In this document: in pieces, positions 50,987-60,424 of the stretch
How positions within the stretch are numbered: position 1 is the stretch's first letter
How the letters are laid out: each line of letters opens with the position of its first letter
DNA from: Kofleriaceae bacterium
GTDB lineage: Bacteria > Myxococcota_A > Polyangia > Haliangiales > Haliangiaceae
Reading direction: 5' to 3'
Assembly: GCA_022842285.1 (NCBI GenBank)
Contig: JALHPV010000002.1
Span: 15,597 to 79,596, forward strand
DNA length: 64,000 nucleotides
The notes under the pieces: generated by a model
Told to the model about the DNA's origin: nothing
Database searches by the model: none
What the model saw: the letters and a program-made list of their open reading frames with translations, nothing else
Position numbers and translations under genes: made by a program

Positions 50987-52528
50987 ATGACGACCAGGTT
51001 CACGCGGCGGACCTTCCTGCGGGGGGCCGCGACCGTCCCACTGGCGAAGTTCCTTCTCGGGTGCGGCGACGACAACAGCGGTGACGGCGGGCAGGTCGAT
51101 GCAGGTATCGACGCGCCTGATGGTCCATCCCCGCCGATGGTGTTCGACCATGGCGTCGCGAGTGGCGATCCCACGCCCACGGCGTTGATCATCTGGACCC
51201 GCATCTCGCTCGCCAGCGCGCCGGTCGAGGTGATCTGGGAGCTGTCGACGGACGACTTCTCCACCATCGCGATGATGGGCACGGTCATGACGGATGCCGA
51301 CCGCGACTACACGGTCAAGGTCGACGTCACGGGCCTGACGCCGGGCACCACCTATCAGTATCGCTTCAAGGCATCGGGAGAGACCTCGCGCGCTGGTCGC
51401 GCGAAGGTGCCGGTGATGGGCCCGCTCGACGCGATGAAGATCGGGGTGACGTCGTGTTCGAGCCTCGCGCATGGCTACTTTCACGCGTACCGCTCGCTCG
51501 CCGGCGAGGAGGTCGATGTCGTGCTGCACCTCGGCGACTACATCTACGAGTACGGCAATCTCGAGTACGGCGAGATCCGCATGTACGAGCCGCCGACGGA
51601 GATCCTCAGTCTGTCCGACTACCGGACTCGCTACGCGCAGTACCGGCGGGATGCGGATCTGCAGGAGGTCCATGCCCGCCACGCCTTCATCGTCGTGTGG
51701 GACGACCACGAGGTCGCCAACGACGCGAACGAGGATGGCGCCGAGAATCACATGCCCGGGACCGAGGGTTCCTACGCAGCGCGGCGGGCGGCCGCGTTCC
51801 AGGCGCACCGCGAGTGGATGCCAATCCGCGACGGCGAGCCCGGCAAGATCTACCGCAAGCTTGCGTTCGGGGACCTGGTCGATCTCTTCATGCTCGACAC
51901 GCGTCACTTCGGTCGCGACATGCCCATCCCCAACATCGAAGATCCGAACCGGCAGCTCCTCGGAGCCGAGCAGGAGGAGTGGCTCGCTGCCGAGCTGCCG
52001 GCCTCGACGGCAGCCTGGAAGTTCATCGGACAGCAAGTCATGATGGGGCAGCTCCCGCTGCTCATGAACAACGACGCATGGGATGGCTACCCCGCCGCCC
52101 GTACGCGCTTCCTCGACCTGATCGAGACCTCGGACGTGGATGACGTGGTGGTGCTGACGGGGGACATCCACTCCTCCTGGGGCATGGATTTGACGCGCGA
52201 CCCGCAGAACACGTCGACGTACGATCCGGCCACCGGCATGGGCAGTCTCGCCGTCGAGCTCGTGACCCCAGGAATCACGTCACCGGGGCTGCCCGATGCA
52301 ATCGCCCCCGATCTCAACCTCGAGATCTTGTCGATGAACCGCCACATGAAGCATGTCGACGTCGCCCTGCGCGGATACATGTTGCTCGACGTGAATCGCA
52401 CGCGCGTGCGCGCATCGTATCGCCACTGGAATGACCTCCAGATCATCGAGCCAACGTTCGTCGAAGGGACGGTGGGAGCGACGCTCGAAGTGCAGGCGGG
52501 CACCCCTCGCCTCATCAAGGTCAGCTGA
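50987..52528 (+). CDS. phoD: Alkaline phosphatase D (PhoD) with a Tat signal and lipobox
   Basis: It has the twin-arginine signal TRRTFLRGAA followed by LLGC. The PhoD blocks are GVASGDPTPTALIIWTR, TPGTTYQYRF, HLGDYIYEYG, WDDHEVANDA and LTGDIHSSW. Confidence 0.85.
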   Translation: MTTRFTRRTFLRGAATVPLAKFLLGCGDDNSGDGGQVDAGIDAPDGPSPPMVFDHGVASGDPTPTALIIWTRISLASAPVEVIWELSTDDFSTIAMMGTVMTDADRDYTVKVDVTGLTPGTTYQYRFKASGETSRAGRAKVPVMGPLDAMKIGVTSCSSLAHGYFHAYRSLAGEEVDVVLHLGDYIYEYGNLEYGEIRMYEPPTEILSLSDYRTRYAQYRRDADLQEVHARHAFIVVWDDHEVANDANEDGAENHMPGTEGSYAARRAAAFQAHREWMPIRDGEPGKIYRKLAFGDLVDLFMLDTRHFGRDMPIPNIEDPNRQLLGAEQEEWLAAELPASTAAWKFIGQQVMMGQLPLLMNNDAWDGYPAARTRFLDLIETSDVDDVVVLTGDIHSSWGMDLTRDPQNTSTYDPATGMGSLAVELVTPGITSPGLPDAIAPDLNLEILSMNRHMKHVDVALRGYMLLDVNRTRVRASYRHWNDLQIIEPTFVEGTVGATLEVQAGTPRLIKVS

Positions 52529-54691
52529 TCACGGTTGCTCGGCGAGACGTGGCAGAGCGCGGCGACGGCGGCGGCGTAGCGGCAGCACCGCGAGGAGGAG
52601 CGGCCAGGCGCCGGCCAGCGAACCACCGCCGCTGCACGTGCACGCGTAGAAGCTCGTGCGCTCGAAGAGCTCCCCGTCGGCGAAGCCGCTCAGGGTGACC
52701 GTCGTCTGGGCCCCGCCGATGATGAACGGCAGCTCGGCGAGGTGCTGGCCGGGGGTGAACGGCGCGAAGCGCACCATGACGGTGTAGCGCTCGCCCGGAG
52801 CGAGCGTGACGGTCTCCATCGCGGGCTCGATGAGCCACGCGCGTGCCGGCCCCTGACGCGAGAGGACGCTCTCGACGCTCAGCGTCGTCGGCGCGCTGTC
52901 ACAGTTCTCGAGGGTGATCAGCCGCGGCGCGCTCGTGGCATCCACGTCGATGACGGCGAAGTCGTGCGAGCGCGGCGACACGGCGGTGCCATCGGCGATG
53001 TACTCGGCACGCAGGTCGAGGACGTAGGGCCCCACGTCGCCGAGCCAGGTGAACGTGCCCGCGAGGGAGCCACTGGTCTGAGTGGTGGTGATGCTGACGC
53101 TCTGCACCTGACCGACGGGGATCTGGGCGGGAAAGGTGACGTCGGGCGAGTACGTGCCGGCGAAGGGGCCCGTGATCATCGGCGCCATCATCTCGAATGG
53201 TGCCGTGCCGTCGTTCGTGAGGCGAATCGTGCCAGCGACCGGCGCCCCCTCGCAGGCCGTGCCGAGATCGAGCGCACCCGTCGGGTCGATCCGTCCTGAC
53301 CTCTCGGTCACCCGTCCCTTCACGGGGACGTCGAGCGCGATGCCATCCACGGTGAACGTGAGCTTGGTCGTGTCGGCATAGTCCTCGGCCACGGACGGAG
53401 TCATCAGCAGCTTCACGAGAGCGACGCCACCCGGGGTGAGATCGCCGACCGGCATCGTCGTCAGCGCGAGCGTGCTCAGCGGCGCCGCCGAGACGATCTC
53501 GAAGTCGTCGAGCAGCACCGTCGCGGCGCCCGTGTTGCGCACCATCACCGTCAGCTCGACGGAGTTTGTATCCTTCAGCACGTCGCCAAAGCCGAGCTCG
53601 GACGGCTCCAGGCTGACCGACGCACTGGTGACGCTGCAGAGGACGTTCACCATCATCGTGTTCTGCGTGACCTGCGGCGACGACTGGATCGTCAGCGTCT
53701 CGAAGACCTCGTCGGGGACCGGGGACTTGCAGGTGACGGTGATGTCGGTGTTACCGGACGGCGTGTTCACGGCGACGCTGGGAACCGAGACCCGCTCCGG
53801 GTCGGTCGAGGTGATGCTCGCGCCCGCCATGGGGTTCGTACCGGTGTAGCGAAGGCGCAGGGTGCGCGTGCCACCGCTCAGCGGCACCGGGCCCATGTCG
53901 AGGTTGAACACGGGGCCGGCGGGGATGGTGACGTCGAGCGACTCGGTCGCGATGCCGTTGCCGCGGAGCATGACCACGTAGCCCGACATGTTGGCGCCGG
54001 CGCCACCCGTGAACATGGCGATCGAGTCGAGCGGTCCAATCACGGGCGGCGTCAGGGTGACGCCGAGTTGCTTCGTTTCGAGCGGCTGCAAGACGCACGG
54101 AATGGGGCAGCCGGTGATCGTCCACTCGGGTAGGAGGCCAGTGATGGACAGAGGGACTTCGGTCGAGAGCAGGTTCGTCACGGTGATGACCGGCCCCGTG
54201 TTGCTCGGTGTCCCGACCACGACGTCGCCGACGTTCACCGTCAACGGAGACACGGTGAAGGCCTCGTTGTTCGAGTTCGCGAAGCAGGAGATGTTCTCCT
54301 CGTCGAAATCGACCGCCGGGTTCGAGCCTACGACGCGCAGACGCGCGGTGGCGGACCCCATGCCGCTGTAGATGCACCGCAGGCCGATCAGCTGCGGGTT
54401 GTTGGAGAGCGGCCGCGTCGTGTACTGGCAGCTGAGTCCGTTCGCCGAACAGAGATCGCCCACCATGTTCGCCATGAGCCTGAAGGCACCCGGCGGTGAG
54501 GGGTTCAGGATGAACGCCTCGGTCAGCTCGCCCGTGCCGACGATGCCGATGTCGTTCGCGATCGTGAAGTCATGGGGCTCCTCGCCGAGGATTTCGACCT
54601 GACCATCGGCGTACGCGATGGCCGCGGCCGTCGCCACGATCAGGATCGACAGCGCCCGGCGCGCCCAGACTCGTCGCCGTCGCCAGGTCAT
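52529..54691 (-). CDS. Large secreted protein of tandem Ig-like/beta-sandwich domains with a MYXO-CTERM-type anchor (720 aa)
   Basis: The ATG at 54689-54691 overlaps the upstream stop as ATGA. The signal peptide is ALSILIVATAAAIAYA. There are several domains of about 100 aa each, rich in T/V/S (choice-of-anchor-D-like). The C-terminus is YACTCSGGGSLAGAWPLLLAVLPLRRRRRR. Confidence 0.75.
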   Translation of the reverse strand: MTWRRRRVWARRALSILIVATAAAIAYADGQVEILGEEPHDFTIANDIGIVGTGELTEAFILNPSPPGAFRLMANMVGDLCSANGLSCQYTTRPLSNNPQLIGLRCIYSGMGSATARLRVVGSNPAVDFDEENISCFANSNNEAFTVSPLTVNVGDVVVGTPSNTGPVITVTNLLSTEVPLSITGLLPEWTITGCPIPCVLQPLETKQLGVTLTPPVIGPLDSIAMFTGGAGANMSGYVVMLRGNGIATESLDVTIPAGPVFNLDMGPVPLSGGTRTLRLRYTGTNPMAGASITSTDPERVSVPSVAVNTPSGNTDITVTCKSPVPDEVFETLTIQSSPQVTQNTMMVNVLCSVTSASVSLEPSELGFGDVLKDTNSVELTVMVRNTGAATVLLDDFEIVSAAPLSTLALTTMPVGDLTPGGVALVKLLMTPSVAEDYADTTKLTFTVDGIALDVPVKGRVTERSGRIDPTGALDLGTACEGAPVAGTIRLTNDGTAPFEMMAPMITGPFAGTYSPDVTFPAQIPVGQVQSVSITTTQTSGSLAGTFTWLGDVGPYVLDLRAEYIADGTAVSPRSHDFAVIDVDATSAPRLITLENCDSAPTTLSVESVLSRQGPARAWLIEPAMETVTLAPGERYTVMVRFAPFTPGQHLAELPFIIGGAQTTVTLSGFADGELFERTSFYACTCSGGGSLAGAWPLLLAVLPLRRRRRRALPRLAEQP

Positions 54692-55974
54692 AGCCGCCCG
54701 ATCACCCCGACCGTCGGCACGAGGATGCTCGTCTCGTAGAGGGCCTCGTCGACGCCGAAGAAGTATTCGAAGCCGATGTCGGCTTGCACGCTGAGATGCC
54801 CATTCAAATACAGCTCCAGGCCGCCCGCGCCGCGCAGGCCCGCCGCGATCTTCGTCGCCTCCATCGAGTCCTGGTAGACGAACGCGGGCACGCCGCCCGC
54901 GATGTACGGCCGGAAGAAGCCGGTGAGCAACCGGTACCGCAGACCGATGTATGCGCCGTTCACGTCGGAGCGCAGATACATGATGTCCGCTTCGATTCGA
55001 TCGCGCGCGATCGCGATGCCCACTCCCCCCGCCGCACCACGCAGCTTGCCGTCGACGCGCAGCACGCCGAGCACGCCCGAGTGGATGTACTCTCGCTTCG
55101 GCACGAAGGCGACCAGATCGCCGCCGTCGCGGGTCTCGAACGTCGGCACGATCGCCGACACCTCGGGACCCGCGTACCCCGAGCGGACCCGGCGCTTGTT
55201 GCCCGTGCCGTCGGAGCCGTACTGCGTGCCGGTGGTGAGCCACGCATCCACGTGCTCGGGGGCTGCTGCCGTCGGCGGAGGAGCCGTCACCACGTCGGGC
55301 GGACCCACCGGCGTGACCGCCACGGGGGGTGGGGGGGCGACGACGGCGGCGACCTCCTTCAGCTCACCCTCGAAGCCGTTGACTGTCACCTCCGTCGTCT
55401 GCTCGCCATTGCGCGCGCGCAGGAGATGAAGTCCCGGCCGCACCCGCGTCTGCATCGACGTGCCAACAGCGATGAACGGTCCTGCATCGATCGACAGCTC
55501 GGTGCCCGGTGGCGCCACGCGAATGGTGAGGATCGTGAGCTGCTCGTCGAGCTTGAGCAGGATCTCCTTCACCTCGGCCACGCGTTCGGGACCCGTCGCG
55601 GGGTCGAGTAGATACCGCTGGTACGTGTTCGCCGCGTCCGCGAGCCGCCCCATGTCGCGCAGCGTCGACGCGATGTTCAGCAAGATCTTCGGGCTCGGAA
55701 ACGTCGCGTACGCCTCGAGGAAGTTTGCGAGAGCCTGGTCATAGACCTCGGCGTCGAGCTGTCTCAGACCCTCGAGCATCAGCGCTTTCGCGAGCTCGCG
55801 CAGCTTCGGGTCCGTCACCGGAATCGCCGGGTCTTGCACGATCACAGCGAGGGAGCGCGCGAGCTGCCCGTCGTCCTGCTTCGTGGCGAGCGGCGGTGGC
55901 GCCGTCACCGGTTGGGCAGCGGCGGCGCGAGCCAGGAGGGCCGTCGCCACGAGTGCGGCGCGAGGTATCGTCAC
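54688..55974 (-). CDS. Secreted protein with a TPR-like region, a PEGA domain and a C-terminal beta-barrel-like region (428 aa)
   Basis: The signal peptide is AALVATALLARAAAAQP. The TPR-like segment is YDQALANFLEAYATFPSPKILLNIASTLRDMGRLADAANTYQRYL. The PEGA-like segment is LTIRVAPPGTELSIDAGPF. The C-terminus has alternating hydrophobic strands. The GTG start overlaps the kinase stop as GTGA. Confidence 0.7.
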   Translation of the reverse strand: MTIPRAALVATALLARAAAAQPVTAPPPLATKQDDGQLARSLAVIVQDPAIPVTDPKLRELAKALMLEGLRQLDAEVYDQALANFLEAYATFPSPKILLNIASTLRDMGRLADAANTYQRYLLDPATGPERVAEVKEILLKLDEQLTILTIRVAPPGTELSIDAGPFIAVGTSMQTRVRPGLHLLRARNGEQTTEVTVNGFEGELKEVAAVVAPPPPVAVTPVGPPDVVTAPPPTAAAPEHVDAWLTTGTQYGSDGTGNKRRVRSGYAGPEVSAIVPTFETRDGGDLVAFVPKREYIHSGVLGVLRVDGKLRGAAGGVGIAIARDRIEADIMYLRSDVNGAYIGLRYRLLTGFFRPYIAGGVPAFVYQDSMEATKIAAGLRGAGGLELYLNGHLSVQADIGFEYFFGVDEALYETSILVPTVGVIGRL

Positions 55975-57290
55975 AGGTCGCGCTCCACGGGAGAGTGCTT
56001 CTTCGTGTGCGTCTCCGTCGGCAGCGCAGGCTTCACCAGCGCGGGCGCCGCGCGCTTGGTCGGGCGTGGCTTCGTTTCGACCGGTCCGGGTGCGGGGACC
56101 GGGACGTCGACCGGCGGTGCGGGCGTCGGTGCTGGCACCGGATCGAGCTTCGCCGGCACGGGCGCGGGCGGAGTCGTCACCATCTCGATGGTCGGCGGGG
56201 GAGGGGCGGGTGCGGGAGCCGGGGCATCGCCACGACCGCGGAGGGCGATCGCGGCCACCACGATCCCCGCGACGAGCACGGTGACGACGCCCGCGATCAG
56301 CGGCATCGACGCCTGGCGAGGTGGCGCCCCGGGGACCAGCGACGGCGCCGGGAGGGCGATCGCAGGCGGGCTCGAGGTCGCGTTCAGCACCGGCTCACTC
56401 GCGCGGAGTGGACGACGCGGCACGCGGGTCGCGATCGCATCGAGCCGCTCGACCACCACGCCCGCATCGGCCGGCCGCTGCTCGGGCTCCTTCGCGAGGA
56501 GCTGGAGCACGAGCTCCTCGAGCTCCGGCGTGACGCCGGCCACATGATCGCGCACGGGCCGCGGCTCCGTGAACATCTGCGCGACGATCACCTCACCCGG
56601 TGCGTCGCCCGGGAAGGGTGGGGCGCCGGTGAGGAGCTCGTAGAGGATGCAGCCCAGCGAGTAGAGGTCGGCGCGATGGTCGACGGCGTTTGCGGTGCGG
56701 GCCTGTTCGGGAGCCATGTAGAGCGGCGTGCCCATGAGGGCCCCGGTCTGCGTCTGGCCCTCGCCGGCGAGGAGAAGCTTCGCGATCCCGAAGTCGAGGA
56801 CCTTCACGCGCTCGCTCGTGCCGTCGGGGACGAGGAAGACGTTGTCGGGCTTCAGGTCGCGATGGACGATGCTCTTGGCGTGAGCCGCCCGGAGCGCACC
56901 GGCAATGCCGCGCGCGACGGCCACGGCTTCGCCTTCGGAGAGCCGGGTGCGCTGCTGGAGTCGCTTCGCGAGCGTGACGCCCTCGAGCAGCTCCATGACG
57001 AGGTACGCGCGGCCCTCGGACGTGTAGCCGAAGTCGTAGACCTCGATGATGCCGGGGTGCTGGATCGCCGACGCGGCCTTGGCCTCGGTGAAGAAGCGCT
57101 GGACGACGTCCTCGTTGTGCGCGAGGTCGGAGCGGAGGAACTTGATCGCGGCCGGGCTATCGAGCAAGCGATGCGTCGCCCGATACACCGTCCCCATACC
57201 ACCGTGCCCGAGCGCTGCGGTCACCCGGTAGTTACCGAGGACCGCCCCGAGCATCGATTGCCGGCGCGGCTCTGGGAGGCTCGCCATCAT
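55971..57290 (-). CDS. Hanks-type Ser/Thr protein kinase with a single TM and a Pro-rich extracytoplasmic tail (439 aa)
   Basis: The kinase motifs are GHGGMGTVY, AIKFL, IVHRDLKPDNVFL, DFGIAK and GTPLYMAPEQ. The TM is PLIAGVVTVLVAGIVVAAIAL. Confidence 0.9.
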   Translation of the reverse strand: MMASLPEPRRQSMLGAVLGNYRVTAALGHGGMGTVYRATHRLLDSPAAIKFLRSDLAHNEDVVQRFFTEAKAASAIQHPGIIEVYDFGYTSEGRAYLVMELLEGVTLAKRLQQRTRLSEGEAVAVARGIAGALRAAHAKSIVHRDLKPDNVFLVPDGTSERVKVLDFGIAKLLLAGEGQTQTGALMGTPLYMAPEQARTANAVDHRADLYSLGCILYELLTGAPPFPGDAPGEVIVAQMFTEPRPVRDHVAGVTPELEELVLQLLAKEPEQRPADAGVVVERLDAIATRVPRRPLRASEPVLNATSSPPAIALPAPSLVPGAPPRQASMPLIAGVVTVLVAGIVVAAIALRGRGDAPAPAPAPPPPTIEMVTTPPAPVPAKLDPVPAPTPAPPVDVPVPAPGPVETKPRPTKRAAPALVKPALPTETHTKKHSPVERDL

Positions 57291-57355
57291 CCCGTGAATC
57301 CTCTAAGGATGCGACAGAAGAGGAGAATCCACAAGGCAGGTGTTACCGTCGGGGC

Positions 57356-57985
57356 GTGTGCAACATCCTCGCGACAGTTGGGGTCGCGGCGGTCGCCGTC
57401 CTCACGATTCCGAGCCCGGTGTGGGCCGATGATCCCGCAGCGCTTGAGGCCGCGGAGGCCAACCTCGAGCCGGTCGAGGCGCGTCGCGGCATGGTGTTCA
57501 CCTTCGCCGTTGGGGGCGGCTTCACCTTGGGCCTGGGCCTGGACGACTCGACCGGCACCGGCGGGTCGGGCGTCCTGCGGGTGGGGCGCGTCGCGAGCCG
57601 GCGGGCCGTCGTCGGCATCGAGCTCGCCGCGGTGGCGCACTTCTCCGGCGTGGTCGTGCCGCCCCTCGATGATACGCCGACGACCGAGCGCTATCGCCGT
57701 GACTCCACGGCCGTCCTCGCGTTTGGCCAGTACTACGTGGGCCCGGTGCTCTGGCTGCGGGCCGGCGTGGGCCTGGGGCGGTATGCGGGCGATGCGCTGG
57801 AGGGGCTCTTCGAGAGCCGCGACCGGGTGCGCCTCGCCGCGCTCGCGGGATCGGCAGGAGCAGGACTCGATCTCATCCGGCTGAAGCGCTTCCGCGCCGG
57901 TGTCGAGATCATGAGCACCGGCTACCTCACACGCGACGGCGTCCTGTCCGCGAACGCCTTCATGCTCGATCTCACGATCGATTGA
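57356..57985 (+). CDS. Secreted beta-strand-rich protein, possible small outer-membrane beta-barrel (209 aa)
   Basis: The GTG start gives a signal peptide (ATVGVAAVAVLTIPSPVWA). Alternating Gly/hydrophobic strands follow (VFTFAVGGGFTLGLGL, LWLRAGVGLGRY). Confidence 0.5.
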   Translation: MCNILATVGVAAVAVLTIPSPVWADDPAALEAAEANLEPVEARRGMVFTFAVGGGFTLGLGLDDSTGTGGSGVLRVGRVASRRAVVGIELAAVAHFSGVVVPPLDDTPTTERYRRDSTAVLAFGQYYVGPVLWLRAGVGLGRYAGDALEGLFESRDRVRLAALAGSAGAGLDLIRLKRFRAGVEIMSTGYLTRDGVLSANAFMLDLTID

Positions 57986-57989
57986 CCGG

Positions 57990-59618
57990 TCAGGTCGGGT
58001 CGTCGTAGTCGCGCGACGCATCTGCGTCGAGATCGACGGTGGCCGTCGAGCCGGCCTGGATATCGGTGCGCACGAACATGCGGCCATCGCGCCAGCGCAG
58101 GAGCAGCGCGACCTGACATGCAGGCAGATCGTCGACGGAGAAGTGACCGTGCTCGACCTGGACGACGCGGCGCTCGCGGGCGATCTCGATGTCCATGCCG
58201 TCGAGACAGCGCGCGATCTCGATCTCGAGCGTGCCGTTGTCGACCTGCGCGAGCGTGCCTTCGAGGCGCCCGGTGCCCTTCAGCGCCAGCTTCACGTTCT
58301 TCGCCGGAGACGCGATCATCTCCGAGACCACCCCGCGCTCGGGCGCGGCCGCGGACACCTGATAGCGACCAGCCGGCAGCGCGTACACGCTCCAGCGGCC
58401 GTGCTCGTCGGTGCGCTCCTGCTGTCCGATGCCCCCCGGATCGAGCGGCATCAGGTCGACGTGCGTGAACGCGACCGGCTTGCCATCGTGATCGACCAAG
58501 ACGCCTTCCAGGTCCGGCGTTCGGTTCGGCAACCGAAACACGACGTTCGAGAAGCGCGCGCCGTTCTTGCACGAGAAGCGCTGCGCGTCGGCGGGCGGCG
58601 CCTTCCAGGGCCAGGCGCGCAGCACGACCTCCTGCTCCGCGACAGTGGTGTAGCGGAACGTGCCATCGGCGGCGATGCGACCCACCGGGGCGAAGGCCGC
58701 CTCGCTCGGCGCATACTGTTCCTCGATCGCACCTTCGCCGGCGGGAGCGCCACTCGGAAGCACGACGCGGCCTGCGATGATGCAACCCTGCACGAGGGCG
58801 AGCGTCACCGTCACGTCGTCGAGAGGGCTGACGCGGACCCCGATCGGCTCGGCGAGGGCGGCAAACTTCGCGTGCGTCGCTTCGAGCACGTACCCCCCGC
58901 CGGGCAGCTTCAGCTCGAACGCGCCCTTCGCATCCGTCTCGGCGACGTCGGTGCCGGGCGTGGTCGAGACCGAGCGCCCGTAGTTACTCGCGCGTACGAC
59001 CGCGCCTGCGATCGGCTTGCCTTCGCCGTCCACGACGGTGCCGCTGACGGTCCCGGCCTGCACGACCTCGAGGTCCACGGACCCGAGATTGCGGACGGCG
59101 GCAACGACAGGCATGCGGTCCGCGACGGGAACCCCGATGTCGTCCGCGCTCGGCTGGCCAGGAATGCGGATGCGGGGCGCGGTGCCGATCGAGAGCACGT
59201 GATCGCCGCGGGCGAAGGCGCGGTACACGCCGATGGGGACCTCGATGCTGTACGAGCCGTCGGCCGCCGACATCGTCGACGACTCCGCGCCCCCGACGGT
59301 CGCGAGCAAGACGACCTCGGCGCCAGGCACCCGCGTGCCCGTGGCGGAATCGATGACCGCGCCGCTCACGATGACCATACCCGGCAGCGATGGCGTCAGG
59401 GTCGGCGCGGGGTCACCGGCGGACGGCGCGACCGGGGGGCCCGACTTCGCGACGCGGCCGGCCTTGCCGAGCTTGTCCTTCACCGTGGGCTCGACGATTC
59501 GCACGTTGCTCGTGCGGCGTGGCTGCGACGACGGTGCGTCACCACGGAAGCGCCATATCCCGAGCCCGACCAGCCCCACCGCCAGCACTCCGAGCCCCCC
59601 GACGACGCGTTTGTTCAT
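57990..59618 (-). CDS. Membrane-anchored protein with tandem carboxypeptidase-regulatory-like (CarboxypepD_reg) domains (542 aa)
   Basis: It has an N-terminal TM (GGLGVLAVGLVGLGI) and at least four units of the type G.V.D..G.P..GA.V......T.DA.G.F.L..P.G.Y. It lies 32 bp downstream of the PP2C gene on the same strand. Confidence 0.7.
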   Translation of the reverse strand: MNKRVVGGLGVLAVGLVGLGIWRFRGDAPSSQPRRTSNVRIVEPTVKDKLGKAGRVAKSGPPVAPSAGDPAPTLTPSLPGMVIVSGAVIDSATGTRVPGAEVVLLATVGGAESSTMSAADGSYSIEVPIGVYRAFARGDHVLSIGTAPRIRIPGQPSADDIGVPVADRMPVVAAVRNLGSVDLEVVQAGTVSGTVVDGEGKPIAGAVVRASNYGRSVSTTPGTDVAETDAKGAFELKLPGGGYVLEATHAKFAALAEPIGVRVSPLDDVTVTLALVQGCIIAGRVVLPSGAPAGEGAIEEQYAPSEAAFAPVGRIAADGTFRYTTVAEQEVVLRAWPWKAPPADAQRFSCKNGARFSNVVFRLPNRTPDLEGVLVDHDGKPVAFTHVDLMPLDPGGIGQQERTDEHGRWSVYALPAGRYQVSAAAPERGVVSEMIASPAKNVKLALKGTGRLEGTLAQVDNGTLEIEIARCLDGMDIEIARERRVVQVEHGHFSVDDLPACQVALLLRWRDGRMFVRTDIQAGSTATVDLDADASRDYDDPT

Positions 59619-59650: not shown

Positions 59651-60424
59651 TTATTTCTCGACCACCTCGATCACGACCGCCGTGATGTTGTCCTTACCGC
59701 CACGCTGGTTGGCGAGCCCGATGCAGGCATCGGCGCACTCCTCGAGCTGGCCCTCGCCGCAGAGGTCGTCGACCTCTTTGTCGCTGCTGAAATAGCCATG
59801 GAGCCCGTCGCTGCAGAGCAGGAAGCGGTCGCCCTTCGAGATGTCGATGTCGGCCGTGTCGACCTGGACGTAGTCCTTGTGACCGACGGCGCGGGTGATG
59901 ACGTTCTTGCCGGCAGCCTTCTCGGCCTCGGCCTTCGTCATCATGCCGTGCTTGACCTTGTAGTTGATGAGGGTGTGGTCCTCGGTGAGCTGGAGCACCG
60001 ACGAGTTGCGCACGCGATACACGCGGCTGTCACCGACGTGCACGGCGAAGGCGAGCCCCGCGCGTACGAGCAGCGCGGAGAGCGTCGTCGACATCCCCTT
60101 CTTCTCGGGGTCGAGCTCCGCCAGCCCGAACACCATGTAGCAAGCGCTCTTCACGCCACTCTCGAGGAGTCGCCGGATCTCCCAGACCTGCTCGGTGTCT
60201 CCCGCCTCGATCGCCGAGCCGAGCCGGTCGATCTCGCGCGTCGCGCCGAACACCCACATGCGGAGCTGCTCGACGGCCTCGCGACTGGCGATCTCGCCCT
60301 TGTTGTGGCCGCCGACGCCGTCGGCCACGACGTAGAAGCCACGCTCGTCGTCGCGGAAGAAGGCGTCCTCGTTGATCTGACGCTTCCGCCCCACGTCCGT
60401 CCGCGCGACCGATTCGAGCTTCAA
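59651..60424 (-). CDS. PP2C-family Ser/Thr protein phosphatase (257 aa)
   Basis: The motifs are TDVGRKRQINEDAF, YVVADGVGGHNKGEIAS, LLCSDGLHG and GGKDNITAVVIEV. Confidence 0.9.
   Translation of the reverse strand: MKLESVARTDVGRKRQINEDAFFRDDERGFYVVADGVGGHNKGEIASREAVEQLRMWVFGATREIDRLGSAIEAGDTEQVWEIRRLLESGVKSACYMVFGLAELDPEKKGMSTTLSALLVRAGLAFAVHVGDSRVYRVRNSSVLQLTEDHTLINYKVKHGMMTKAEAEKAAGKNVITRAVGHKDYVQVDTADIDISKGDRFLLCSDGLHGYFSSDKEVDDLCGEGQLEECADACIGLANQRGGKDNITAVVIEVVEK

Follow-up and report, generated by a model that had tools for sequence, protein, structure and literature searches.

We propose, with moderate confidence, that a three-gene operon of a Kofleriaceae bacterium encodes a split receptor kinase, specific to its lineage, that reaches across the cell envelope; the steps of this proposal that go beyond gene content and predicted fold are those that we infer. 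The operon lies on the minus strand of a window of 64,000 nucleotides (nt) (assembly GCA_022842285.1, contig JALHPV010000002.1, positions 15,597-79,596 of the forward strand), and all positions given below count from the first letter of this window. Gene 1 (55971-57290) encodes a Hanks-type Ser/Thr kinase of 439 amino acids (aa), predicted to cross the membrane once in an N-in/C-out orientation, gene 2 (54688-55974) encodes a secreted protein of 428 aa with TPR, PEGA-like and eight-stranded beta-barrel parts, and gene 3 (52529-54691) encodes a protein of 720 aa with a signal peptide and Ig-like domains of the choice-of-anchor-D/ASH type. The junctions between the genes were read directly. The kinase ends with GAC CTG TGA, and its stop codon is shared with the GTG start of gene 2 in the tetranucleotide GTGA (55974-55971), while gene 2 ends with CGG CTA TGA, sharing ATGA (54691-54688) with the ATG start of gene 3. 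A first-pass annotation, made from the letters alone, had described these three open reading frames (ORFs) and their start-on-stop overlaps, and both are confirmed here; the stoichiometric co-expression that it derived from them is suggested by the gene overlap alone.

The same annotation had assigned a domain content to each product, and these assignments hold for all three proteins. It had described gene 1 as a membrane kinase whose only part outside the cytoplasm is a Pro-rich tail. The cytoplasmic kinase domain (residues 21-274; 56469-57230) matches Pkinase (PF00069) in Pfam with an E-value of 2.5e-52 and 178.3 bits, against a cut-off of 31.7, and the catalytic motifs are all present (G-loop GHGGMG, AIK, HRDLKPDN, DFG and APE), so that by its motifs gene 1 is a catalytically intact Hanks kinase. 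One transmembrane helix, placed at the hydrophobicity maximum (residues 329-350, MPLIAGVVTVLVAGIVVAAIAL; 56241-56306), leads into a low-complexity tether, predicted to be periplasmic (residues 351-439; 55974-56240), which contains 27 Pro in 89 aa (30%) and no recognised domain. The tether ends with the short linear motif SPVERDL (residues 433-439; 55974-55994), which is conserved in relatives. Pfam detects no PASTA domain, and the match to the PknB/Stk1 model NF033483 (304.7 bits, cut-off 450) is confined to the kinase domain, which indicates that gene 1 is not a PknB/Stk1 PASTA kinase.

Gene 2 had been read as a secreted TPR and PEGA protein, with a small barrel at its C-terminus whose absence was set beforehand as grounds for abandoning the reading. 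The protein has a Sec signal peptide (AAAA/QP) and lacks a lipobox Cys. We modelled it with AlphaFold2 (AF2) on a family alignment of 33 relatives, obtaining an overall predicted local distance difference test (pLDDT) of 82.8. The model comprises a helical N-terminal extension with TPR-like repeats (residues 35-145; 55540-55872; helices with pLDDT of about 90), a PEGA-like beta-sandwich (residues 147-211; 55342-55536; strands above 90), a flexible linker (residues 212-299; 55078-55341; pLDDT 35-66) containing an insert that is specific to the orthologue clade (WLTTGTQY...), and a C-terminal barrel (residues 300-428; 54691-55077) ending with the invariant GVIGRL, in which residues 300-427 form eight long antiparallel strands with pLDDT above 90. 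TPR_16 reaches a sub-threshold 21 bits in the window protein and is matched in 25 of the 33 aligned family members. The helical part includes the invariant residues Y89, S94, N116, Y118, Q119 and Y121. PEGA (PF08308) is not matched in the window protein, and the homologous position is matched in 5/33 relatives (best E-value 6.3e-6), and in a paralogue from the same genome at 25.3 bits, above the cut-off of 20.8.

The barrel assignment relies on several lines of evidence. The OMP_b-brl family (PF13505) gives an E-value of 0.06 and 14 bits (cut-off 28.7) in gene 2 itself, it is matched at E<0.01 by 18 of the 33 aligned relatives, with 2.5e-8 as the best value, and a precomputed PF13505 match is recorded for many relatives in the database. 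A Foldseek search of the PDB with the model returned the N-domain barrel of OprF as best match (4rlc; E-value 2.9e-5, TMt 0.72), followed by OmpA, NspA, PagL and OmpX. In the family alignment, alternate positions of the strands form a variable aliphatic face and a face bearing invariant Gly, Arg and Glu, which is the pattern of a membrane barrel and not of a soluble one. On the predicted structure, the barrel is closed and antiparallel, with an even number of strands and a lipid-facing hydrophobic face. Together, these data support a small barrel of the outer-membrane type, which is predicted to insert in the outer membrane. It resembles the N-terminal barrels of OmpA and OprF (1qjp, 4rlc) in the predicted fold of residues 300-428, and both termini are predicted to be periplasmic, but the identity is 12-16%, the soluble TPR-PEGA part is N-terminal to the barrel instead of a C-terminal OmpA_C domain, and the end is GRL instead of aromatic. 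One database relative is named YbgF/CpoB; no YbgF match was obtained with NCBIfam at E<=0.1 and the architecture differs from the coiled coil and C-terminal TPR of that family. Among the further Foldseek matches are 9k1u_B and 9k1u_D, which belong to the RtkS-PpkA complex (TMt 0.61-0.68, E-value about 2e-3, about 73 aligned columns); they hint that part of the gene 2 model may resemble a domain of a known periplasmic regulator/kinase complex.

For gene 3, the predicted chain of Ig-like, choice-of-anchor-D-like domains with a MYXO-CTERM signal is recovered by family models. The protein carries a signal peptide and matches choice_anch_D (NF012200) in four stretches with 74.8 bits (cut-off 45), and the HYDIN/VesB-like Ig family of Pfam with 40.9 (cut-off 25.5). 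The sorting signal (52532-52651) is tripartite, with FYACTCSGGG followed by the hydrophobic helix SLAGAWPLLLAVLPL and by RRRRRR. It passes the TIGR03382 model (17.1 bits, cut-off 15.85) and fails the revised model TIGR03901.2 (14.6 bits, cut-off 20); a preprint by Haft states that one MYXO-CTERM hidden Markov model cannot suit all lineages. The same genome encodes a myxosortase core protein (Mrt, NF040914; G000:C123) with 107.6 bits, against a cut-off of 100, and myxosortase cleaves MYXO-CTERM and is needed for sorting such proteins to the cell surface of Myxococcus xanthus (PMC11980579).

To follow the operon through related genomes, we compared the window with 20 loci fetched from the same genus, giving a set of 21 loci; with the paralogous and more distant ones, roughly 45 loci were gathered. 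Full-length orthologues of gene 2, with 42-65% identity, occur in 23 of 24 same-genus genomes. The order of the neighbourhood is PP2C, CarboxypepD_reg protein, small divergent gene, kinase, gene 2 and gene 3. Gene 2 is followed by a gene with a MYXO-CTERM tail in all 21 loci, with an offset of -4 in 18, -1 in two and +1 in one, and the kinase is kept in 17, which therefore have the full triad; in 14 of these 17 the kinase and gene 2 overlap by 4 nt. The conservation of the neighbourhood, which the first-pass annotation had proposed as a check, is thus established. The ectodomain of gene 3 is much less constant, at 23-35% identity to the window protein or undetectable (L028), with the same MYXO-CTERM tail in every homologue. 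Six genomes (L014, L015, L017, L019, L022 and L027) have two tandem MYXO-CTERM choice-of-anchor-D genes after gene 2. The tandem copies are strongly unlike each other and have 24-35% identity to the window protein, which suggests birth-and-death or diversifying evolution of the putative surface component.

Beyond the genus, it is the kinase and the barrel protein that recur as a pair. The gene 2 tree contains a second clade of proteins of about 340 aa, with signal peptide, TPR, PEGA and barrel, which is split from the orthologues with 100/100 support. Each of these partners lies directly downstream of a kinase that is 45-55% identical to gene 1, as a separate ORF with its own signal peptide, and in 11 of 12 paralogous pairs the kinase-partner junction falls within a few nt. 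At 10 of 13 more distant loci, from other genera and one other family, the gene directly upstream is again a kinase, and the junction overlaps. Near the paralogous loci there is often a gene for a gene 3-like MYXO-CTERM protein, in a divergent or upstream position. Ranked by kinase identity (47-63%, 45-55% and 38-39%), the groups follow the same order by partner identity (42-65%, 30-36% and 24-26%). The last group is a third, more distant pair family (L072, G010:C64; L074, G002:C261), with kinases of 38-39% identity and the same layout; its partner has clear TPR_2 and PEGA matches and a canonical aromatic end (...GGELWF or ...GGEVWF), and its kinases end with ...SPYD or ...SPY.

A profile of the barrel only finds the family in 7 of the 110 genera of the class and in 3 of 208 genera in a phylum-wide sample, and it matches only 380 proteins in a library of 1.84 billion representatives. 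The module occurs only in a single lineage at family level, most of whose bacteria are uncultured. Within that lineage, the distribution of sequences indicates that the kinase/barrel-protein pair is probably the ancient core, and that the MYXO-CTERM protein is probably a clade-specific, rapidly diversifying input or output component. The orthologue clade of gene 2 also has two segments that the paralogue clade lacks, an N-terminal helical extension (29-60) and the linker insert WLxxGxxY... (238-290). These segments are candidate gene 3-related regions, as the paralogue clade also lacks a coupled gene 3.

We also looked for natural fusions between the components. Each of the best 150 of the 380 barrel representatives is a secreted protein with the barrel at its very C-terminal end, and none was seen to be a genuine fusion to a kinase. 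Several apparent fusions were discarded: open frames of 814-961 aa around the paralogues resolve into separate ORFs in which each partner has a signal peptide; long frames around other TPR-PEGA matches, which seemed to bear out the statement of the first-pass annotation that TPR and PEGA modules lie in cis on many myxobacterial kinases, are read-through artefacts of GC-rich sequence; P0206 (711 aa) is a frameshift-merged kinase and partner; and P0184 is a tandem TPR-PEGA variant. One metagenome representative, P0148 (1124 aa), combines a signal peptide of the lipoprotein type with some ten Ig-like domains (ASH/choice-of-anchor-D), and these are joined, midway through the TPR region, to a PEGA and barrel of the paralogue type. 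It is either a Rosetta-stone-like deletion that fused a gene 3-like to a gene 2-like gene, with the kinase excised, or an assembly chimera.

The tail of the kinase provides a new feature, which is the most useful lead from this analysis. The tails of the relatives are 83-182 aa long, contain 13-34% Pro and cannot be aligned, but almost all the partnered kinases inspected close with a motif of the form [SA]P[IL]Exx[LI] or [LI][LI]E[TI][DE][LI], which a scripted motif scan recovered in 28 of 30. The first form is that of the orthologues, with SPVERDL-COOH in the window and SPIETTL, APIEPDL or CAPIETAP elsewhere, whereas the kinases of the paralogous pairs and of other genera have LLETDL, LIETDL, LIEDDI or LPIERDIE. 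The motif codons differ synonymously between loci (GAG/GAA, TCG/TCT/GCG and others), and the distance from motif to stop varies from 0 to 18 codons, being 7-18 codons in several orthologues. This indicates that the constraint on the motif acts on the protein, and that the motif is not just the ribosome-binding site of gene 2. A by-product of a Shine-Dalgarno sequence is likewise ruled out as the sole cause, since synonymous changes leave the motif intact and it is also found 7-18 codons ahead of the stop. A conserved terminal peptide on a freely varying spacer looks like a docking motif.

These elements suggest how the split receptor could work. The barrel would sit in the outer membrane, with the TPR-PEGA head hanging in the periplasm, and the extended tether of the kinase would reach this head, where its terminal motif would dock, most likely by binding in the groove of the TPR or by adding a strand to the PEGA sandwich. 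With about 90 aa at about 3 Å per residue, the tether could extend over more than 250 Å and would easily span the periplasm. A change in the outer membrane or at the surface would then alter docking, and with it the clustering or oligomeric state of the kinase and its autophosphorylation. Candidate inputs are envelope damage, an altered distance between the membranes, and contact of the hypervariable MYXO-CTERM protein with a ligand or a cell, and the neighbouring PP2C phosphatase may reset the signal. More tentatively, and with a good deal more doubt than we attach to the split receptor as such, these loci may define a new class of modular split receptor kinases in which a kinase lacking a sensor domain inserts its tether motif into an adaptor fixed to the outer membrane, the whole acting as a molecular ruler or mechanosensor of envelope integrity, and in which the clade of the window would also transduce surface contact, or kin or prey recognition, into Ser/Thr phosphorylation.

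The proposed geometry recalls two well-known envelope systems. TonB is anchored in the inner membrane and has a long Pro-rich arm that spans the periplasm, contacting outer-membrane barrels by means of the TonB box, a short motif of the beta-strand type (acidic-Thr-hydrophobic). The TonB box resembles the I-E-T-D-L tail motif, by analogy only, as here it is the protein of the inner membrane that bears the motif, a TonB C-terminal domain and ExbBD are both lacking, and the output would be phosphorylation instead of energy transduction. In the RcsF-OMP-IgaA system of Enterobacteria, a sensor associated with the outer membrane contacts a signalling protein of the inner membrane and reports perturbation of the outer membrane or peptidoglycan, but the proteins are different, the output is a phosphorelay, and Hanks kinase, TPR/PEGA and MYXO-CTERM components are absent.

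The nearest functional analogue is TagQ/TagR-PpkA, and TraAB comes closest to the gene 2/gene 3 pair; neither is homologous. In the H1 type VI secretion system (T6SS) of Pseudomonas aeruginosa, TagQ, a lipoprotein of the outer membrane, and TagR, a protein of the periplasm, act on the inner-membrane Hanks kinase PpkA after membrane damage (PMC13713981), and RtkS-PpkA of Serratia is a second case of control of a Hanks kinase from the periplasmic side (PMC6082577). The likeness consists of an inner-membrane Hanks kinase, separately encoded envelope partners, one of them tethered to the outer membrane, an envelope-state input, and activation thought to occur via kinase dimerisation. However, the kinase domain is the one part of the TagQR-PpkA system that has a homologue in the operon. 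The periplasmic domain of PpkA is folded, whereas the ectodomain of gene 1 consists only of a low-complexity, Pro-rich tether and its terminal motif; the outer-membrane anchor is here a predicted integral eight-stranded barrel fused to TPR-PEGA, and in TagQR a lipoprotein plus a soluble protein, while gene 2 has no lipobox. Unlike TagQRST-PpkA, the operon has no T6SS or FHA genes among the neighbours inspected (PP2C, CarboxypepD_reg protein and phoD), and it has a MYXO-CTERM surface protein attached. As the first-pass annotation had supposed, a literature search on PEGA, kinase and outer membrane, and on Kofleriaceae, found no description of such a module.

Several observations weigh against a split receptor of this kind. 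The kinase was lost at least three times independently in the gene 2 tree, while genes 2 and 3 remained; it is absent from L021, L023, L026 and L032 (G015, G007, G004 and G014, respectively), where a spacer of 0.5-1.1 kb separates the small divergent gene from gene 2. Furthermore, the paralogue of gene 2 in the same genome (L042, G000:C285, 3318-4475, minus strand) has no kinase in the 2.1 kb available upstream, and the ORFs that flank it have no Pfam matches. Gene 2 ends with the invariant GVIGRL and lacks an aromatic C-terminal beta-signal, unlike two other proteins encoded in the window, the TonB-dependent receptor and TamA, whose last residue is F. The putative surface loops of its barrel are very short, and a direct link between gene 3 and gene 2 would as yet have no structural basis. 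Finally, docking was modelled by AF2 on a paralogous pair, as a single chain formed by a 60-aa tail and the partner; in three paralogues the junction is an in-frame TAG before the partner ATG, and this TAG was read as Gly. The partner folded as before, but no confident contact was obtained and the motif remained unstructured (pLDDT <50), in what is a weak test, with the signal peptide present in the chain and a tail alignment of three rows. The trans-envelope module of the first-pass annotation is thus plausible and stands as to synteny and barrel, and its contacts between the products are putative. Its triad is syntenic (17/21 loci) but not obligatory: the kinase losses and the paralogous pairs lacking a coupled gene 3 indicate that the core consists of two overlapping pairs, kinase-gene 2 and gene 2-gene 3, and not of a fixed three-part machine.

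The kinase losses are also part of the case for a different division of labour, in which genes 2 and 3 form a TraAB-like unit, a polymorphic adhesin or recognition protein with its anchor or assembly factor, and the kinase makes no contact with them, sharing the transcript or sensing by other means. We consider this unlikely. In its favour, no link is better conserved than the coupling of gene 2 to gene 3 (21/21 loci), at least three lineages dispense with the kinase, whose tail was not docked by AF2, and the ectodomain of gene 3 is hypervariable (23-35% identity, sometimes undetectable and sometimes in tandem), as in polymorphic receptors. TraA and TraB form the outer-membrane-exchange receptor of M. 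xanthus and are encoded in an operon with a 4-base overlap (PMC3325183, PMC11980579), with traA specifying the MYXO-CTERM protein and traB the envelope partner (PMC3325183). The shared features are thus a polymorphic, myxosortase-dependent MYXO-CTERM surface protein, an envelope or outer-membrane partner, and the overlap. However, TraA has a PA14-like domain and Cys-rich repeats, whereas gene 3 has choice-of-anchor-D Ig-like domains, and TraB has an OmpA-like peptidoglycan-binding domain that gene 2 lacks; in agreement, Pfam and NCBIfam give no PA14-like, Cys-rich-repeat or OmpA_C match in either protein. The gene order is reversed, and traAB has no kinase. What speaks for a functional link to the kinase is that the kinase/barrel pair recurs in paralogous lineages and in other genera lacking a coupled gene 3, that the partnered kinases have no sensor domain of their own, and that the terminal motif is conserved on a tether that otherwise varies freely.

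The unusual end of the barrel bears on a second possibility, that it is a soluble barrel in the periplasm and that gene 2 acts like TagR or RtkS, as a soluble periplasmic activator or stabiliser of the kinase with no anchor in the outer membrane. The GRL end of the family, where the TonB-dependent receptor and TamA of the genome have an aromatic residue, would fit this arrangement, and designed soluble barrels (6ohh, TMt about 0.61) appear among the Foldseek matches beside the RtkS-PpkA chain (9k1u); periplasmic activators of Hanks kinases are known (PMC6082577, PMC13713981). On the other hand, the best structural matches are all membrane barrels, PF13505 is matched in 18/33 members with E-values down to 2.5e-8, and the conserved Gly/Arg/Glu face opposite a variable aliphatic one is the reverse of the conserved hydrophobic core of a soluble barrel. 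The related third family, with the same architecture, ends with the canonical ...ELWF. We therefore regard a soluble co-sensor as quite improbable.

The tail motif could also be addressed to another protein. Class I PDZ ligands have the form x-S/T-x-Phi-COOH, and the ends of the paralogue kinases resemble such ligands. A PDZ protease or chaperone of the periplasm might accordingly recognise the motif (Phi-Phi-E-T-D-Phi-COOH) and so bring about a regulated proteolysis of the kinase, with gene 2 being independent or a competitor. The paralogue kinases do end exactly with ETDL, ETDI or ETKL at a free C-terminus, and AF2 did not dock the motif on its partner. In many orthologues, however, the motif is internal, with 7-18 residues after it, and many lack a Ser or Thr at position -2, including the ERDL of the window. 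The tight genetic coupling is to the TPR-PEGA protein, with no PDZ gene linked in the loci inspected, which makes this explanation very unlikely. Last, the genes might have no functional coupling at all, being adjacent through descent alone, with overlaps that result from compaction of the genome. This has only a slight chance of being correct: 4-nt overlaps are common in high-GC genomes, but here order and overlaps are kept across proteins of 42-65% identity, through duplications of the whole pair and across genera, while the flanking genes vary (phoD, 0/20 loci).

The split receptor kinase thus remains the reading that we prefer, and the surroundings of the operon help to define its limits. 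Upstream, a divergent intergenic region of 65 base pairs (bp) (57291-57355), between the kinase ATG at 57290 and a plus-strand gene at 57356, is presumed to be the promoter region of the operon. A promoter scan found no sigma-70 consensus in this spacer, and promoter and terminator scans gave nothing informative. The plus-strand gene (57356-57985) encodes a 209-aa protein with a signal peptide and about eight amphipathic beta-like segments, which is syntenic in 19/20 loci with 29-50% identity. This protein (P0007) has no Pfam or NCBIfam family match and is not detectably a homologue of the gene 2 barrel (hhalign probability 0.2%), and it may be another small outer-membrane protein. The minus-strand ORF at 57287-58087, considered as a possible fourth gene of the operon, was rejected, as its translation is junk and it shadows this conserved plus-strand gene; the operon therefore begins at the kinase. 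At the other end, the stop codon of phoD (52526-52528) touches that of gene 3 (52529-52531). The zero-bp gap noted by the first-pass annotation is real, but the adjacency is not conserved, and with synteny in 0/20 relative loci phoD is excluded as part of the operon.

A PP2C phosphatase is encoded further upstream on the minus strand (59651-60424; PP2C_2, E-value 1.7e-14). It is syntenic in 17 orthologue loci and, with 80-88% identity, is far more conserved than the operon proteins. It is a candidate cognate phosphatase for the kinase, but may instead serve the RsbR/STAS/kinase-DUF4388 cluster on its other side.

Myxobacteria encode many Hanks kinases, whose inputs are unknown for nearly all, and many of these kinases have no recognisable sensor domain; several Hanks kinases are found within the window itself. 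The operon is real, uncharacterised and lineage-restricted, and is plausibly a new form of a kind of signalling that is already known, in which separately encoded outer-membrane or periplasmic partners act from the envelope on a Hanks kinase. If the proposal is true, it would be the first link, in the literature searched, between MYXO-CTERM/myxosortase surface proteins and phosphorylation signalling. A sensing head anchored in the outer membrane, combined with a docking-type motif on the kinase tail, would provide a testable wiring by which apparently 'sensor-less' kinases might monitor the envelope or the surface of the cell.

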